Shown piece after piece: positions 53,554 through 60,740 of a stretch of 64,000 nt of DNA. The stretch spans positions 1 through 64,000 of the forward strand of contig JBNGBT010000011.1 in assembly GCA_049903315.1 (NCBI GenBank), in the 5' to 3' direction. This DNA comes from Candidatus Cloacimonadota bacterium. Lineage in GTDB: Bacteria > Cloacimonadota > Cloacimonadia > JGIOTU-2. Within the stretch, counting starts at the first letter, position 1; every line of letters starts with the position of its first letter. The notes below the pieces were generated by a model. It saw only the letters and a list, made by a program, of their open reading frames with translations. It made no database searches and had not been told where the DNA came from. The position numbers and the translations under genes were made by a program.

Positions 53554-55965
53554 TCACTCTACCGTAAAATACCTACCCACTATCTTGAGCACATTTTTCC
53601 AGCCCTTGAGCATCATTTGTACGCTTGTTCCATACAATGCTTCGACAATACCTCTGACCCCATTATAGATTTTCTTACTATAGGGATGCCACCAGATATT
53701 TTTACGTGCAAAAGGTAGGATATCATTTACAATAACCTGTGGCTGTGTCATTTCATCAAAACCGATCTTTCCATGCGTGCGTCCGATACCTGATTCCTTG
53801 AATCCGCCCCAAGGCGTTTCTGCAAGCCCGTGGCTCATCAGGTGGTCATTTATCGTCACTGCACCTGCCTTGATCTTTCTGGCTATATGAATCGCCTGTA
53901 CTTTGTTCTTCGACCAGACAGATCCTGTGAGACCGAGATTGGAATCATTCGCGAGCTCAACAGCATCTTCCATATTTTTAACTTTCATCACTGCAACGAC
54001 GGGACCGAAGCTTTCTTCAAGCATCACTTTCATTGTATGATCGACATCTGTGAGTACAGTTGCAGGATAAAAATTCTTGTATGATTTTGGAATTGCTGAT
54101 TGAGCAAAAATCTTTGCTCCTTTTTCAAGTGCATCACGAACGTGTTCCTTGACTGTTTCGACCTGACTCTGCTTGGTCATGGAACCCATATCAACATTAT
54201 AATCAGTTTCATATCCCACACGCAGGTTATCAACCTTGATTTTCAATTTGTGTAAGAATTCATCATACACTTTTTCATGTACATAAATCCTCTCGACACC
54301 TCCGCATGACTGACCCGCATTGGAGAGACCAGCCCATACTGCGCCGGTCGCAGCCCTGTAGATATCAGCGTCAGAACACACAAGCATTGCATCGTTGCCA
54401 CCGAGTTCCAGAACAAGAGGTGTAAGCGTCTCGGCAGCTTGTGCCATAAGCTTTTTTCCGATCGGAACGGAACCAGTGAAAAAAAGTTTATCTACTCCAT
54501 TATTAAGGAACGCATCTCCAGCTTCAGCCCCCGAAATGTTCACATAATTGAACACATTCTCAGGGAATCCTGCAGCACGAAAGCATTCTTCGAGTTTACG
54601 TCCGACCATCTGGGTATTGGATGCCACTTTGAGAACAACAGTATTTCCCGCAAGCAGCGCCATCACCACTTCTGAAAATGGAATGCCAAATGGATAATTC
54701 CACGGTGAGATGATTCCGATGACACCAAAAGGAGTCCTATACATTGCACTCTGTTTGTTTGAAAGCATGATGTTGCCAAACCAGATGCTTTTTCTTTTCA
54801 AAAAATTCCGTGCATGACTGCAATAATATGACAGAGCCATTGCAGCAGGAACAAGTTCTGTAGAAAGCGCATCGATCCTTGTTTTTCCATTGTCGCGCGA
54901 GATGACTTCCGCAAGCTCATCAATATGATCGATCATATATGCACGTACTCTTTTCAGGTGATCTATCTTTCTTCCAATAGGAAGTCTTGCCCATCCCTCT
55001 TGTGCGATTTTTGCTTTTTGCATGATATCTTTTATTTCGTTGGGTGTATTGAGGGTTGAGTATCCTATTATTTCTCCAGTTGTCGGATTGTACGAAGTTG
55101 TATAATTTCCACTTGGTGGTGAGAGTGTATTTCTATTCATGTGGTCGTCCTTCTTTTCTATTCTTCCGATAAATTCATCCATCGAGGCATTAATTCCAAG
55201 TATATTTGAGACAAGATCGAATATTTTAACAGGCAGTAATCGCAGAAGCCAAACTGTGTAGACAAGCAAGGGCTTCACCACTCTGCGCTTATCATATTTT
55301 ATCGCATTGAAAATTTTGCGTGCGACTTTATCTTCCTTGAGGATTGGAAGCAGAAATGAAAATCGTGATTTCACCCCCTTGAACATTCCTGTATCGATAT
55401 AATACGGACATACAACAGTAGTTTTAATATCCAGTCCAGCTTTTCGGAACTCCTGCCTGAGTGATTCATCCATGCCGAAATTAGCAAATTTAGTCGTAGA
55501 ATAGACCGAAAGATTTGCAACACCTATAATACCTGCAGCAGATGCAATTGTGACAATATGACCGCTGTTTGCCTGTCTCATTTCAGGAAGAAATGCTTTT
55601 ATTATCCAAAGGTGCGCCAGTAAGTTTATCTTAATAGTTTTCTGAATATCGTCATCGGAATATTCCCAGTAGGGTTTGCCAAAGACTACTCCTGCATTAT
55701 TCACGAGTATATCGATCTTGCCTATTTCCTTTTTTACTTTCTGGGCAATGTCGTCGATCTGTTTCTTATCAGAAACATCGCAATAATAACCAGTCGCAGT
55801 ATATCCTTTATTTTTTATTGCGCTGGTCACTTCATCAAGATGCTTCTTATTGATATCCCAGATAACGACGTGTGCTCCTTCGATAGCCATCAAGTACGCA
55901 AGCTTTTTCCCTATGCCGGAAGCTCCTCCTGTGATCAAAACATTTCTGTCTGCAATAATGCTCAT
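53554..55965 (-). CDS. Fused short-chain dehydrogenase (SDR) and aldehyde dehydrogenase
   Basis: SDR motifs TGGASGIG, NNAG and YSTTK. ALDH motifs ISPWNYP, FTGS, LELGGN, GQSCGG, EESFGP and PWGGFKESG. Confidence 0.9.
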   Translation of the reverse strand: MSIIADRNVLITGGASGIGKKLAYLMAIEGAHVVIWDINKKHLDEVTSAIKNKGYTATGYYCDVSDKKQIDDIAQKVKKEIGKIDILVNNAGVVFGKPYWEYSDDDIQKTIKINLLAHLWIIKAFLPEMRQANSGHIVTIASAAGIIGVANLSVYSTTKFANFGMDESLRQEFRKAGLDIKTTVVCPYYIDTGMFKGVKSRFSFLLPILKEDKVARKIFNAIKYDKRRVVKPLLVYTVWLLRLLPVKIFDLVSNILGINASMDEFIGRIEKKDDHMNRNTLSPPSGNYTTSYNPTTGEIIGYSTLNTPNEIKDIMQKAKIAQEGWARLPIGRKIDHLKRVRAYMIDHIDELAEVISRDNGKTRIDALSTELVPAAMALSYYCSHARNFLKRKSIWFGNIMLSNKQSAMYRTPFGVIGIISPWNYPFGIPFSEVVMALLAGNTVVLKVASNTQMVGRKLEECFRAAGFPENVFNYVNISGAEAGDAFLNNGVDKLFFTGSVPIGKKLMAQAAETLTPLVLELGGNDAMLVCSDADIYRAATGAVWAGLSNAGQSCGGVERIYVHEKVYDEFLHKLKIKVDNLRVGYETDYNVDMGSMTKQSQVETVKEHVRDALEKGAKIFAQSAIPKSYKNFYPATVLTDVDHTMKVMLEESFGPVVAVMKVKNMEDAVELANDSNLGLTGSVWSKNKVQAIHIARKIKAGAVTINDHLMSHGLAETPWGGFKESGIGRTHGKIGFDEMTQPQVIVNDILPFARKNIWWHPYSKKIYNGVRGIVEALYGTSVQMMLKGWKNVLKIVGRYFTVE

Positions 55966-56264: not shown

Positions 56265-57125
56265 ATGACTTATAAAAAAAAGAGATTTGGTCCTGAGGAA
56301 ATTTCCAAACTCATAATCAATTTATTACAAAATAGCAAATTTATAATTACTTTATTGTACTATTTATTAATAATATCAATATCAATTATTCTTTTAATTT
56401 TTTTCATTTTTTTAGACACAAATATTGATATTAGTAAAGCAATGATAATTCCATTTATCACAGCAATTACTGCAATAATTATCTTAATTTATACAAAGGA
56501 AACTTATGAATTAAGAGTAATCGAAAGTAAAAAATATGAAAGAGAATTAAGACCAATTCTTGAGTATAAAGTCGAGCAAAGAAATGATGAAAATCCTTTT
56601 GAACTGACCCTTCTTATTCATAATAAATCGAATGAGCTAATATCATGTCTTGTAAAACTTGAATATTTTATTTTGTTAGACAATAATTCTTTTACTATTC
56701 ATAAGAAAAATCCTTGGAAGAGATTTCAGGGTAATAGAATTTGGAATATTCAATATAAACAGACGATTGAGTCAAAATTTGAAATTACTAAAGCATTCAA
56801 ATGGTATAATTCTTGGCTTGATTCCTATTATCTTTACAAATCTTCAGAAGACTATTCTTTATACATGAAATCAATCATGGAATTATCCAAATTTTATAAA
56901 CCTGATTACAATATTGAGGAAATGAGATCTTTCAAATTACTATTTAAATTTCATCTTGTTAGTTTCACTAATTCTACAAATGTTATTCCTTATATACCAA
57001 TTACATATATTATAAATATGCTTCTTGTTAATCACAATTTGGAATATTGTTTTACTAGTGAAACTCCTGCATATAAATATGATAAAATTCCTAAGTGGGC
57101 TGAAAAAATAATAAATAATTTGTGA
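56265..57125 (+). CDS. Hypothetical membrane protein, very AT-rich
   Basis: 286-aa ORF with an AAGGA RBS and two N-terminal hydrophobic segments. No recognisable motif. Confidence 0.6.
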   Translation: MTYKKKRFGPEEISKLIINLLQNSKFIITLLYYLLIISISIILLIFFIFLDTNIDISKAMIIPFITAITAIIILIYTKETYELRVIESKKYERELRPILEYKVEQRNDENPFELTLLIHNKSNELISCLVKLEYFILLDNNSFTIHKKNPWKRFQGNRIWNIQYKQTIESKFEITKAFKWYNSWLDSYYLYKSSEDYSLYMKSIMELSKFYKPDYNIEEMRSFKLLFKFHLVSFTNSTNVIPYIPITYIINMLLVNHNLEYCFTSETPAYKYDKIPKWAEKIINNL

Positions 57126-57134
57126 GGATTTCTT

Positions 57135-60056
57135 ATGAAAAAAATAACATTTTTAGTTTTTATTTTACTCCTTCCCATTCTCCTATTCTCAGATAATGCC
57201 AAGCCTTATCCCGATTATCAGAAAATAATAGAAAACACGAATCTAAATTTAAGGCAGCAGGCAGATTTCTATGAACAATTCCGAGAAATACTTGAGGACT
57301 CGAAGAATATGGATAACTATGATGTCACCTACTATAAAATAGACATCGATATAGATATTGATGCTGAGTTCATAGAATCTGAAATAACTATGCAGGCAAG
57401 GATCTGCGAGGATCAAATTGAAGAGATTGAGTTGAATTTCACGAATAATTTAACCGTCACAGATATTCAACAGAATACCACTTCTCTCATCTTCGTTCAT
57501 TCGGACGATATCATAACTATCCAACTCGATGACACATATAATACTGATGACTTGATCGAGATTACAGTATCGTATGAAGGTTATCCTGACACAAAACTCA
57601 GCGACGGCATGAAGTTTGAATCCCACAATAGTACTCCGAATGTCTTTACAATGGTGTCTCCAAAGGGTGCCAGAAAGTGGTGGGCATGTAAAGATACACC
57701 TGCAGATAAACCGGATTCTCTCGATATCTGGATCACCTATCCTGAAGAATATGTGTGCGCATCCAACGGATTACTCATCGAGCAAATCAATAATGGAGAC
57801 GATACAGTTACAGACAAATGGCACGAATCCTATCCTGTAGCAACATATCTCACTTCACTTGCGATCTCAAATTATCAAATTTACTCGCAGACGTACACGT
57901 CCGGTGATCAGACAATGCCGATCGACCACTATCTTTTTCCAGAATTGTATACTACTTGTGAAGATCTTTTTAGCATAACGCCTGATATGATAACATTTTT
58001 TGCATCTGTGTATGGTGAATATCCCTTTATTGAGGAGAAATATGGACATGCTTTATGTGCAAACCTGAGCTGTCTTGCAATGGAGCATCAAACCTGCACC
58101 TCTTTTCGAAGTGGATATGTCGGAGATCCGGGGGCAGAATCGACCATTGCACATGAGCTTTCACATCAATGGGCTGGGGACTGCCTTTCTATTGGCTCGT
58201 GGGCGCATGTGTGGCTGAAAGAGGGTTTTGCACGCTATAGTGAAGCGTTATGGGCAGAGAATTTGTACGGATCACAGGGTTTGCATGATTTCATGAATGC
58301 ACTCGATACAGGCACAAATCTCGATCCGTGCTTATACCGCGATCCTGATGGCTCTGCATCGCAAATTTTTGATATTGTGATATATTCGAAAGGAGCTTGG
58401 ACAATGCATATGCTTCGCGGCGTATTGGGAGATACTGATTACTTTTCAACCGTGTATAACCTCATGCAGGATCCGCAATTCAAATATGGAAATTTCCTTA
58501 CTGATGACCTGAGAGACATCGCTGAAAACACAAGCGGTATGGAACTCGACTGGTTCTTTAATGAGTGGTTTTATAATGAAGGACGACCCTATTATTTCTA
58601 TACAACGTATACATCTGAGATGGAAGATTCTTTGATCATTACTACTCAATCCGAAGGAACTTTCGGGCAAAATTTTGCTATGCAATTGCCAGTATGCATC
58701 AATAATATAGACTATAGTATTTTTGCTGATTCCGGTTTCTGTTATAATAAACTTCCTCTAACCGGCACACTCGATGATCTTGTGTTCGATCCGGATAACT
58801 GGGTATTGGATGGCGGATATAATGAGAAAATTCCTGTTCTTGACGAGATAGAAGCAACTCGCGGGGCAATATTACTTGTATGGAATGAATTCTTTGATCC
58901 ACAAATCGAAGGATATAATATTTACAGAAAGCAAGTTGGTGAAGAATATATAAAAATCAATGATGAGACTATTACTGATATTTCTTATTTTGATGAAAAT
59001 GTAATTACAGGAGTTGAATACTATTACAAAATCGCAGCTGTACTTGAAAGTGACACACAATATATCAGTAAATTTTCTAATGAAGTACATGGCACATCAA
59101 TTGATTTCTCACTCGATCAGGGAATACTTGTGATAGATGAGACTGATCAGATCAGTCCGGCGTTTCCGACAAATGCAGAGGTTGATTCTTTCTACCAGTA
59201 TTTGCTTCAGGGCTATGAATACACGGAGTGGGATGTCGATGATCAGGGGAGTCTCCCCCCACTTTCTGAGATGGCAAAATACAGTAGCATTGTCTGGCAT
59301 TCTGATGAGATGTTCACCTCTCAATTTATTGGTTCGGTATATCCTTTGAAAAGCTACTTTATTGCAGGAGGAAATATGTTCGTATCCGGTTGGAAACATC
59401 TTCCGGGACCTTCCGATCTTTTTGAACACTATCTCCACACTTCTTTGCCCGAATACAATTCAGACGATGATTTCACTGGTGCGTATGGTCTAGAAGGGCT
59501 ACCCTATCTCGATGTGATAGAATCCAAAGTCCCAATTGCCATGTGGGGCGATAATCTCAGCTATATTTATAAACTTTTCCCCGAAAATGATGCAGATACG
59601 ATCTTCACTTATGACTCTTCAATTGATGCTCCGGGATGGGAGGGTATGCCCTGCGCTCTGCGATTTAATGGTGAATACAATCTTTATCTTCTTGGTTTTC
59701 CATTGTATTATATGGATGAATCCGGCGCACGGCATCTTATGCAGCAAGCGATGCAAGATTTTGGAGAGGTGTATGCTGTAGATCCTCACCCTCAAGATGA
59801 AATATCGTTACGATTATTTCCAAATCCAGTAAAAGAAAATTGTATTATTTCATACTCGTTGAATCAAACGGAGATGGTTAAGCTGGGAGTGTTTAACGTA
59901 AGAGGACAACTCGTGGAAACAGTAGTATATGAGATTCAAAATGTTGGAAATCATAATCTAAATTGGCATGTTGAAAAGTTTGCATCCGGGATTTATTTAT
60001 GTAAATTAGTTATTGGTGATGCTGTTTATAATAAGAAAGTATTGATAATTAGATAA
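57135..60056 (+). CDS. Secreted M1-family zinc aminopeptidase with FN3-like domain and Por-secretion-type C-terminal tail
   Basis: Signal peptide, AMEHQT, HELSHQW-x-WLKEGFA, YSKGA, and LFPNPV...GIYLCKL...KKVLIIR. Confidence 0.9.
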   Translation: MKKITFLVFILLLPILLFSDNAKPYPDYQKIIENTNLNLRQQADFYEQFREILEDSKNMDNYDVTYYKIDIDIDIDAEFIESEITMQARICEDQIEEIELNFTNNLTVTDIQQNTTSLIFVHSDDIITIQLDDTYNTDDLIEITVSYEGYPDTKLSDGMKFESHNSTPNVFTMVSPKGARKWWACKDTPADKPDSLDIWITYPEEYVCASNGLLIEQINNGDDTVTDKWHESYPVATYLTSLAISNYQIYSQTYTSGDQTMPIDHYLFPELYTTCEDLFSITPDMITFFASVYGEYPFIEEKYGHALCANLSCLAMEHQTCTSFRSGYVGDPGAESTIAHELSHQWAGDCLSIGSWAHVWLKEGFARYSEALWAENLYGSQGLHDFMNALDTGTNLDPCLYRDPDGSASQIFDIVIYSKGAWTMHMLRGVLGDTDYFSTVYNLMQDPQFKYGNFLTDDLRDIAENTSGMELDWFFNEWFYNEGRPYYFYTTYTSEMEDSLIITTQSEGTFGQNFAMQLPVCINNIDYSIFADSGFCYNKLPLTGTLDDLVFDPDNWVLDGGYNEKIPVLDEIEATRGAILLVWNEFFDPQIEGYNIYRKQVGEEYIKINDETITDISYFDENVITGVEYYYKIAAVLESDTQYISKFSNEVHGTSIDFSLDQGILVIDETDQISPAFPTNAEVDSFYQYLLQGYEYTEWDVDDQGSLPPLSEMAKYSSIVWHSDEMFTSQFIGSVYPLKSYFIAGGNMFVSGWKHLPGPSDLFEHYLHTSLPEYNSDDDFTGAYGLEGLPYLDVIESKVPIAMWGDNLSYIYKLFPENDADTIFTYDSSIDAPGWEGMPCALRFNGEYNLYLLGFPLYYMDESGARHLMQQAMQDFGEVYAVDPHPQDEISLRLFPNPVKENCIISYSLNQTEMVKLGVFNVRGQLVETVVYEIQNVGNHNLNWHVEKFASGIYLCKLVIGDAVYNKKVLIIR

Positions 60057-60087
60057 TATAAATTTTCTCACCATCCTTAAAAAAAAA

Positions 60088-60148
60088 TGGCTCCACAGGA
60101 GGGATTTGATCCGCCAGCTGGCGGATAACAGACACCTGCTCTACCGCT
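60088..60148 (-). pseudogene. Partial tRNA-Asn copy (D-loop to CCA) carrying a palindrome substitution
   Basis: Matches 60415-60476 except for one SNP and replacement of the 17-nt ACCACTTTGTCGGGGGT by TCCGCCAGCTGGCGGA. It lacks the 5' acceptor strand. Confidence 0.85.
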
Positions 60149-60392
60149 ACGAAAAAATTTCTTCCCGAATGAATTTTCTTCCCTGATAAGATTTCAATTC
60201 CCTTTCTCTTTTCATTGCTTCTGATTTTGTTTCAAATTCTTCATGATAGACTAAATCCCAAGGAATATATTTCGCAGTCCAGCCCTGGATGCCTTGATTG
60301 TGAAAATGTAATCTTCTTTCTAAGTTGTTGGTATAACCAATATAGATCTTATCATATACGGGAGAATATAAAACATAAGTATAATATTTCAA
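60147..60392 (-). CDS. Small stand-alone GIY-YIG nuclease (SLX1/UPF0213-like)
   Basis: YTYVLYS...IYIGYTNNLERRLHFHN...EAMKRERELK. TTG start preceded by AAGGA/GGTGAG. Confidence 0.9.
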   Translation of the reverse strand: MKYYTYVLYSPVYDKIYIGYTNNLERRLHFHNQGIQGWTAKYIPWDLVYHEEFETKSEAMKRERELKSYQGRKFIREEIFS

Positions 60393-60414
60393 ATCTCACC
60401 ATCCTTAAAAAAAA

Positions 60415-60489
60415 TGGCTCCACAGGAGGGATTTGAACCCCCGACAAAGTGGTTAACAGCCACCTGCTCTACCGCTGAGCTACTGTGGA
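60415..60489 (-). tRNA. tRNA-Asn (GTT)
   Basis: Folds as TCCACAG-TA-GCTC-AGCGGTA-GAGC-A-GGTGG-CT-GTT-AA-CCACT-TTGTC-GGGGG-TTCAAAT-CCCTC-CTGTGGA-G-CCA. Confidence 0.96.
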
Positions 60490-60609
60490 ACGTAGTGGAG
60501 ACTTACATCCAGTGACCGCTCCTTAGTGTCAAGAAAATCAAGACCTATTTATATATAAAAACTAATTTAACCTTTAATAAAATTTCTTATCCCTTACAAA
60601 CCTAACACA

Positions 60610-60686
60610 CTCCACAGGAGGGATTTGAACCCCGTCCGCCAGCTGGCGGATAACAGCCACCTGCTCTATCGCTGAGCTACTGTGGA
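60610..60686 (-). pseudogene. Degenerate full-length tRNA-Asn copy carrying the same palindrome
   Basis: Matches the intact gene except D-loop GG>GA, no CCA, one fewer G in the T-stem, and TCCGCCAGCTGGCGGA (60635-60650) replacing ACCACTTTGT. Confidence 0.85.
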
Positions 60687-60740
60687 ACGTAGTGGAGACT
60701 TACATCTGATGACTGCTCATTCGTGTCAAGAAATATGACA

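Follow-up and report, generated by a model that had tools for sequence, protein, structure and literature searches.

A short dispersed hairpin replaces self-complementary stretches of tRNA copies and genes, possibly through a neighbouring small GIY-YIG nuclease

Near one end of the analysed stretch of Candidatus Cloacimonadota DNA (64,000 nucleotides of contig JBNGBT010000011.1, hereafter the window), two degenerate copies of a tRNA-Asn gene carry the same palindrome at the same position of the anticodon loop, and an intact tRNA-Asn gene and a gene for a small GIY-YIG protein lie between them. The locus raises the question of how such a palindrome reaches one tRNA site twice, and whether the neighbouring nuclease takes part. 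The origin and spread of REP-like palindromes are, to our knowledge, a long-standing question, and we know of no established function for the stand-alone Slx1-like/UPF0213 GIY-YIG proteins of bacteria.

We verified the coordinates and the junction given in a preliminary description of the window: TCCGCCAGCTGGCGGA occurs at 60110-60125 and 60635-60650, with an 18-nt extension at 60109-60126, and on the tRNA strand both 16-mers start straight after GTTA (anticodon plus A37). As had also been described, it is missing from the intact tRNA-Asn (60415-60489) and has no third copy within the 64-kb window. The features are the following.

60053 to 60148, minus strand: pseudo-copy A, which comprises the D-loop-to-CCA part of tRNA-Asn (60088-60148) and a duplicated downstream leader (60053-60087).
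60110 to 60125: hairpin copy A, TCCGCC-AGCT-GGCGGA, 18 nt (60109-60126) including the flanking A/T; 17 nt (ACC...GGT) of the tRNA copy are replaced.
60147 to 60392, minus strand: gene for a putative 81-aa single-domain GIY-YIG nuclease of Slx1/UPF0213-like predicted fold, Y6, Y17, G19, R27, H31 and E63 intact (PF01541, E 1.8e-17; pLDDT 95).
60415 to 60489, minus strand: intact tRNA-Asn(GTT), the sole unpatched Asn gene called in the assembly.
60437 to 60453, minus strand: 17-mer replaced in copy A, in parent coordinates, by flank alignment.
60444 to 60453, minus strand: candidate target 10-mer ACCACTTTGT in the intact tRNA-Asn (tRNA positions 38-47), which in several relatives reads ACCACTTGGT/C.
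60610 to 60733, minus strand: pseudo-copy B, a 197-bp-spaced tandem duplicate with upstream region, 91% identical and without CCA; ARAGORN calls a tRNA-Asn at 60609-60687.
60635 to 60650: hairpin copy B, apparently in place of the 10-mer, with one G missing from a G run.

Read along the minus strand, the locus runs clpX, copy B, intact tRNA-Asn, GIY-YIG gene and copy A, the first bases of which overlap the stop codon of the GIY-YIG gene. Hairpin copy A is predicted to fold as DNA with -7.3 kcal/mol (z -4.2). Contigs from four public runs in four studies cover both palindromes with 0 differences, which argues against an assembly artefact, the whole stretch being spanned by no single contig. Among the variants listed for these contigs, there are none in copy number and none by excision. 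A promoter and terminator scan gave chance-level results. The GIY-YIG gene starts with TTG here (60390-60392), as against an apparent ATG in close relatives (e.g., genomes G002, G007 and G021). Nearby, the window encodes a 286-aa ORF without a Pfam match (56265-57125, plus strand), an M1 peptidase with a secretion-system tail (57135-60056, plus strand) and an 803-aa ORF (53554-55965, minus strand) that, by its motifs, appears to resemble a short-chain dehydrogenase fused to an aldehyde dehydrogenase.

The replaced length of 17 nt previously noted for copy A was reproduced. For copy B, flank alignment gives 11 nt, which is best read as 10 nt replaced plus one G lost from a G5 run, because the copies of relatives (L010, L019 and L221) show 10. 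We then looked at the same junction in other organisms. A GTDB junction scan yielded 18 loci, 13 of which are tRNA-Asn copies, the other five (L042, L049, L052, L055 and L058) not being evident tRNA copies; the tRNA-Asn matches include KSB1, Balneolales (2), Fidelibacterota, Bacteroidetes and one further bacterium. At six loci (L047, L048, L051, L054, L056 and L059), the flanks of the patched copy match the host's own adjacent tRNA, and in the KSB1, Balneolales, Fidelibacterota and Bacteroidetes cases and in the further bacterium the replaced piece is ACC-N4-GGT. A metagenome scan added tRNA-Met and others among at least 120 loci (40 of the 120 listed have short flanks, and several are duplicated across collections). 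In 46 Asn/Met pairs of pseudo-copy and parent, among which some loci contribute more than one pair and at least one match (L161) is doubtful, exactly 10 nt after A37 are replaced in 35, 11 in 7 (mostly one G short within a G run), 17 in 2, 9 in 1 and 18 in 1. By sequence comparison, the swap is a replacement, not an insertion, and it recurs at fixed junctions in unrelated hosts.

The repeated writing at one tRNA position that the preliminary description had proposed is thus borne out in many lineages, and the alternative it had offered, a single insertion followed by duplication and deletion, is extremely unlikely if taken as one old event in an ancestor of the family with no active system. 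Copies A and B alone may share an origin: their loop is AGCT in both cases, relatives have inherited the two of them, and on the tree (few columns, backbone unresolved) the order's Asn-linked proteins fall into a single supported group (97/95). As a general account, however, a single insertion is contradicted by the same junction in the hosts' own tRNAs in other phyla. It also sits badly with differing loops at one site, as in genome G007, where the main-position tRNA is itself patched with a loop that differs from that of its other patched copy; with the different hairpin family, TCCCGA, that occupies the same Asn junction in L422 and L425 (Bacteroidota phylum); and with the patchy presence at orthologous sites among close species.

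Some observations stand beside these. Pure insertions of 20-nt hairpins occur in the tRNA D-loops of L059, L423, L424 and L426, so that replacement is not the sole mode. A new hairpin keeping the 4-nt loop of its target was not seen in the compared loci or pairs. The tRNA's own anticodon stem was rejected as a local source by template switching, as the same arms occur in hosts with different stems. A record titled Woesearchaeota (L050), a near copy of the locus whose protein is sister to that of the window on the tree, is probably mis-binned; the region compared between L231 and the patched locus was not common to both.

We next turned to the genome-wide distribution. The preliminary description had proposed a non-autonomous REP-like tag, set against a palindrome confined to its two sites. 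The assembly contains 6 exact copies of the 14-nt core and 15 TCCGCC-N4-GGCGGA hairpins versus 0.057 expected (Markov order 4); among loop lengths 0 to 10, TCCGCC/GGCGGA hairpins occur at loop 4 and at no other. These copies are mostly intergenic and often nested in other repeats. In the family, 20 of 21 genomes have the hairpin, with 2-77 copies each (reversed control: 0 in 20, 1 in one); one genome of a sister family (G021) has 112 copies, and 19 further genomes from the class have none. Moreover, five genomes of other phyla carry 7-69 copies, and 6 of 70 genomes drawn evenly from the phylum of a Bacteroidetes hit carry at least 8. A dispersed, non-autonomous, REP-like tag is supported by these counts. 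A sister hairpin, CCCGA-N4-TCGGG, has 14 copies in the same genome versus about 1 expected, and there two further small GIY-YIG genes are followed by copies of tRNA-Pro and tRNA-Asp that its TCCCGA family has patched. Candidate target 10-mers are not depleted in the genome.

An A flanks at least one side of 90 of 100 hairpin sites (52% expected). This one-sided A alone is general, as no constant GTAG or CGTC foot was found over the 100 sites; a CTTG/CTTC foot is present at 13 of 68 oriented sites, partly due to composite repeats. These data bear on the idea that a Y1/HUH (RAYT-like) transposase mobilises the hairpin as a REP, which we consider highly unlikely. The genome does have four Y1 genes, sister TCCCGA-N4-TCGGGA hairpins flank two Y1 loci of relatives (L307 and L323), and the CTTG/CTTC foot could be read in its favour. 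However, TCCGCC-N4-GGCGGA lies within about 1.5 kb in none of the 33 Y1 loci examined (one or a few per genome), the constant foot is absent, genome G003 has the hairpin and no Y1 match at E 1e-5, and Y1 genes are present in many genomes without the hairpin. The earlier view of a palindrome system apart from RAYT is in agreement with this.

In the genome, only 6 of 47 tRNA calls have a hairpin within 380 bp; they belong to the three loci linked to GIY-YIG genes and to one tRNA-Ser, through its variable arm. That arm (C9:2363) is a family hairpin with one mismatch. In apparently intact tRNA-Ser genes elsewhere, the variable arm is a family hairpin in 27 among the 120 metagenome matches listed (e.g., L114, L117 and L128), a tally selected for by the search pattern and not a frequency; such arms may be tolerated overwrites. 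At L087, L089, L093 and L096, behind GIY-YIG genes, hairpins are nested in the loops of other family hairpins.

To what extent is the nuclease involved? Its predicted structure, an alignment-based model (pLDDT 95), is a bare single GIY-YIG domain of 81 residues, and the best structural and sequence matches are UPF0213 proteins and Slx1, a branched-DNA nuclease (PDB 6seh, 1zg2, 1ywl), with the I-TevI domain ranking below Slx1. Y6, Y17, R27 and E63 are invariant in 18 aligned homologues, and NCBIfam has no family for the protein. Profile searches found 28 homologues, 27 of them at tRNA-like sequence and 25 with a TCC...GGA or CCTGCC hairpin within 250 bp, a pattern that was widened after viewing those loci, versus 2 matches over 24 kb of distant flanking sequence and none in 14 tRNA-Asn loci that lack the gene. 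Judged by this context, the 81-aa gene belongs to a widespread tRNA-linked cassette. In its own genome, 3 of the 15 copies are no further than 300 bp from a small GIY-YIG gene, against an expectation of 0.02, and the other 12 lie away from such genes. Overall, a strong association of the hairpin with small GIY-YIG genes at tRNAs, as suggested previously, is supported. In addition, the hairpin type tracks the nuclease/tRNA type, even within one genome: TCCGCC goes with the window's Asn/Met group and mostly TCCCGA with Asp/Pro. TCCGCC was found within 350 bp in just 1 of 40 further small GIY-YIG loci of relatives.

Genome G021, with its 112 copies, has as its sole small GIY-YIG gene an intact member of the window's clade. 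In the 70-genome Bacteroidota sample, the core clade is present in 2 of 6 hairpin-rich genomes and in 2 of the remaining 64 (p 0.03 by Fisher's test, related genomes not being independent), and the two richest genomes both have it. Genomes G001, G005 and G011 carry 57, 68 and 77 copies with no TCCGCC-patched cassette among their small GIY-YIG loci (assemblies 89-99% complete, fragmented), and in G002, G004 and G009 the hairpin behind the gene is decayed or lost. Taking the sequence evidence together, the 81-aa nuclease likely writes the hairpin; as several hairpin-rich genomes lack this clade, writing remains a candidate role.

The same observations allow for the nuclease being a passenger, some host process or other enzyme writing the hairpins while the GIY-YIG cassette merely makes spare tRNA copies that tolerate patches. 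Besides the hairpin-rich genomes lacking the clade, this is suggested by patches in plain tandem duplicates (a GIY-YIG gene lies between patched copy and parent in 15 of the 46 pairs, and in 31 none does), and by patches that lie in Ssn-type or other repeats or are nested inside other hairpins. We regard it as improbable, if deserving of attention: nearly every cassette has a hairpin (25 of 28), Asp-linked genes keep TCCCGA in G005 although TCCGCC is abundant there, and in the window's own genome the tRNAs near hairpins are just those at the GIY-linked loci and the Ser arm.

Other small GIY-YIG genes were met during these searches. Some lie in or at 23S rRNA genes (L105, Rfam-confirmed; L108, L373 and L376, judged from flanks), and another group has short inverted ends of the CCCCGT/ACGGGG type and is apparently inserted within other genes in a transposon-like manner (L098, L347, L348, L366, L370, L371, L377, L381, L383 and L388).

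We then asked what the replaced stretches have in common. The 288 loci reduce to 70 events in 20 junction classes, the junction calls having a possible one-base error. Three classes, which replace at most 3 nt, were left out of the pairing analysis; in 15 of the 17 classes replacing at least 6 nt, the two ends of the replaced stretch pair with each other over two or more bases. Segments of equal length drawn from the same tRNAs would give 1.25 such classes, and none of 200,000 simulations reached 15. Some replaced stretches are true tRNA arms cut at the base, namely the 17-nt anticodon arms of Pro, Ala, Val and Asp, and others, such as ACC-N4-GGT, correspond to no cloverleaf helix. In the tRNAs, the replaced ends (ACC/GGT, AGC/GCT, CA/TG and whole anticodon arms) pair with each other but differ from the ends of the donor. 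Stretches of 7-17 nt are replaced by 16 nt, with no short duplication at the sites compared, and sites beyond the anticodon loop are struck as well, both in the remaining arms of tRNAs and in protein genes and RNase P RNA.

The preliminary description had pictured one fixed and one variable junction. Instead, both junctions lie at the feet of a self-complementary stretch, usually of 10 nt, and the window's 17-nt "variable" case fits this rule too, as its replaced stretch also runs ACC...GGT; the 17-nt form may alternatively derive from the 10-nt form by a later slippage deletion. The window's own 10-mer has two terminal pairs only and is predicted to be unfolded.

Replacements are not restricted to tRNA copies. 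When orthologous regions were compared within the genus, a relative proved to be unpatched at 8 sites, two of them in recG and others in polA and RNase P RNA. Over the 8 sites, four changes are 10 to 16 nt, three 16 to 16 and one 8 to 16. The recG and polA swaps in relatives are in frame, and in-frame copies in the housekeeping genes of relatives extend to ruvC, holB and cmk; in G021, 13 of 48 copies inspected (of 112) lie well within long ORFs, e.g., ruvC (two), holB and cmk. The persisting swaps in protein genes for the most part preserve the reading frame (10 to 16 or 16 to 16 nt). With in-frame copies in recG, polA, holB and ruvC (L236, L239, L330 and L339), there may be a bias toward DNA repair and replication genes in this small sample. 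In the RNase P RNA of G003, one hairpin family is replaced by the other. Separately, RNase P RNA with two family hairpins was observed at L266:1600-2017 and in the window's own genome (C55:212938-213050); the six relatives examined all have one of the two, which shows a compensatory change in the window's own genome.

In protein genes the parents' ends, TC...GA, are self-complementary and also alike to the donor's ends, so that hairpin feet and micro-homology are indistinguishable there. Another reading is an Ssn-like recognition mark: the nuclease would bind its own hairpin in single-stranded DNA and cut beside it, and the freed strand with the hairpin would enter look-alike sites by the host's micro-homology repair, the target being left uncut by the enzyme. 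SsnA, a single-domain GIY-YIG protein, is described as cutting in this way next to its NTS hairpin (PMC11893778). The way in which hairpin type follows nuclease type, the one-sided A, the TC and GA of the gene parents and a change at position -7 in 5 of 15 copies behind a GIY-YIG gene all point in the same direction. We nevertheless judge it unlikely, while taking it seriously, since the tRNA replaced ends self-pair yet differ from the donor's ends, and the -7 changes are mostly confined to one related clade.

Replacement, recurrent junctions, self-complementary ends, the adjacent A and the linkage of hairpin and nuclease were read from aligned sequences. The explanation that fits them best, held tentatively and with slightly less than even confidence, is a nuclease-initiated hairpin exchange that overwrites self-complementary stretches of tRNA copies and genes. 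The enzyme's role, the location of the cut and the delivery of the donor are what we infer here. Acting on DNA that is single-stranded or extruded, the Slx1-like GIY-YIG nuclease would place a nick at each foot of a small target hairpin, and host repair would then patch in a copy of the element's own 16-base hairpin. A patched tRNA gene would likely be dead, so that patched alleles would persist mainly in duplicates, either behind the nuclease gene, as with copy A, or in short tandem duplications, as with copy B. A broader form, in which the 81-residue nuclease excises any small DNA hairpin at its feet and the 16-base family hairpin is sealed in, making a new class of overwriting replicator, is possible and in our view rather doubtful.

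If the nuclease is the writer, it would be a very small structure-directed DNA editor, and a swap by a neighbouring nuclease would be an undescribed spreading route for a very small DNA element. If hairpin-tip exchange holds, the element would be a minimal selfish replicator that overwrites instead of inserting, without transposase, recombinase or reverse transcriptase, and that alters the sequences of tRNAs, RNase P and proteins in different phyla; its hairpin would be specific to the nuclease subfamily. The wild-type and patched tRNA genes form a precise substrate pair, whose junctions are defined to the base and recur in different phyla. Even if the nuclease is not the writer, a replacement-type mutation keeps adding the same short peptides (e.g., IRQLAD, PPAGG and SASWR) to core proteins, and a replacement that both disables tRNA copies and adds peptides matters for annotation and evolution in these lineages.

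Finally, the locus can be compared with known systems. Slx1/UPF0213 proteins are closest in predicted fold and sequence; here the protein, of putative activity, has neither an Slx4 partner nor an extra domain, and it is encoded in a tRNA cassette of mobile appearance. GIY-YIG homing endonucleases that stand free beside tRNA genes, e.g., SegB of T4, share the tie between a GIY-YIG gene and tRNA genes, and such enzymes join a nuclease domain to a DNA-binding module. Whereas homing takes place between intact alleles, here the tRNA duplicates are patched by hairpins, and the single 81-residue domain has no separate DNA-binding module, in contrast to the modular build of homing endonucleases noted in PMC11893778. 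As with a tRNA-targeting integrative element, a direct repeat is present, but the sole ORF between the repeats is the GIY-YIG gene, with no integrase.

Rickettsia palindromic elements, as summarised in PMC10969869, likewise place palindromes in frame in housekeeping genes, as seen here in relatives; they are insertions of about 150 bp, whereas here a 16-nt replacement has a candidate nuclease partner, and we found no 70-300 bp insertion with terminal repeats or target duplication of the RPE/MITE kind. REP/RAYT elements (Di Nocera et al. 2013, PMC3733652) are also short GC-rich palindromes in tens of copies, some in frame, including in replication and repair genes. The multi-copy short palindrome described here differs in being shorter (16 nt), in replacing a target hairpin, in having no constant GTAG/CGTC foot and in that no linked Y1 transposase was found at the 33 Y1 loci examined. 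Searches of the open-access PMC and bioRxiv literature returned no description of a tRNA-linked GIY-YIG/hairpin replacement system.

By analogy, the system would work most like Ssn/NTS, in which SsnA, a single-domain GIY-YIG protein of the Ssn family (cd10448), cuts single-stranded DNA beside the NTS hairpin (Chenal et al. 2025, PMC11893778). There are differences: the protein here has 81 aa and lies outside the tree group of 94-98-aa NTS-flanked proteins, to which its identity is 37-44%; they group apart (96/89) from the Asn group (97/95) on a tree of few columns and unresolved backbone that stands in for a CDD assignment to cd10448. The hairpin is 16 nt long, lacks the SRM motif (0 matches, exact or with 1 mismatch, in 3.2 kb around the gene, compared with exact matches in 5 of 13 Ssn-like control loci, a search of limited sensitivity), lies inside tRNA copies and replaces sequence, whereas PMC11893778 makes no mention of tRNA in its text and, in the parts considered here, deals with cleavage, not replacement. 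Ssn-like genes of 95-96 aa with NTS-like flanks were observed in the same genomes (L003, at C11:265116 of the window's own genome, L351, L354, L355 and L374). The likeness lies in a small single-domain GIY-YIG gene with its catalytic residues intact, in a flanking hairpin that is also dispersed genome-wide, and in the mutated SsnA residues Y6, Y17 and E64, which by numbering and motif correspond to Y6, Y17 and E63 here.
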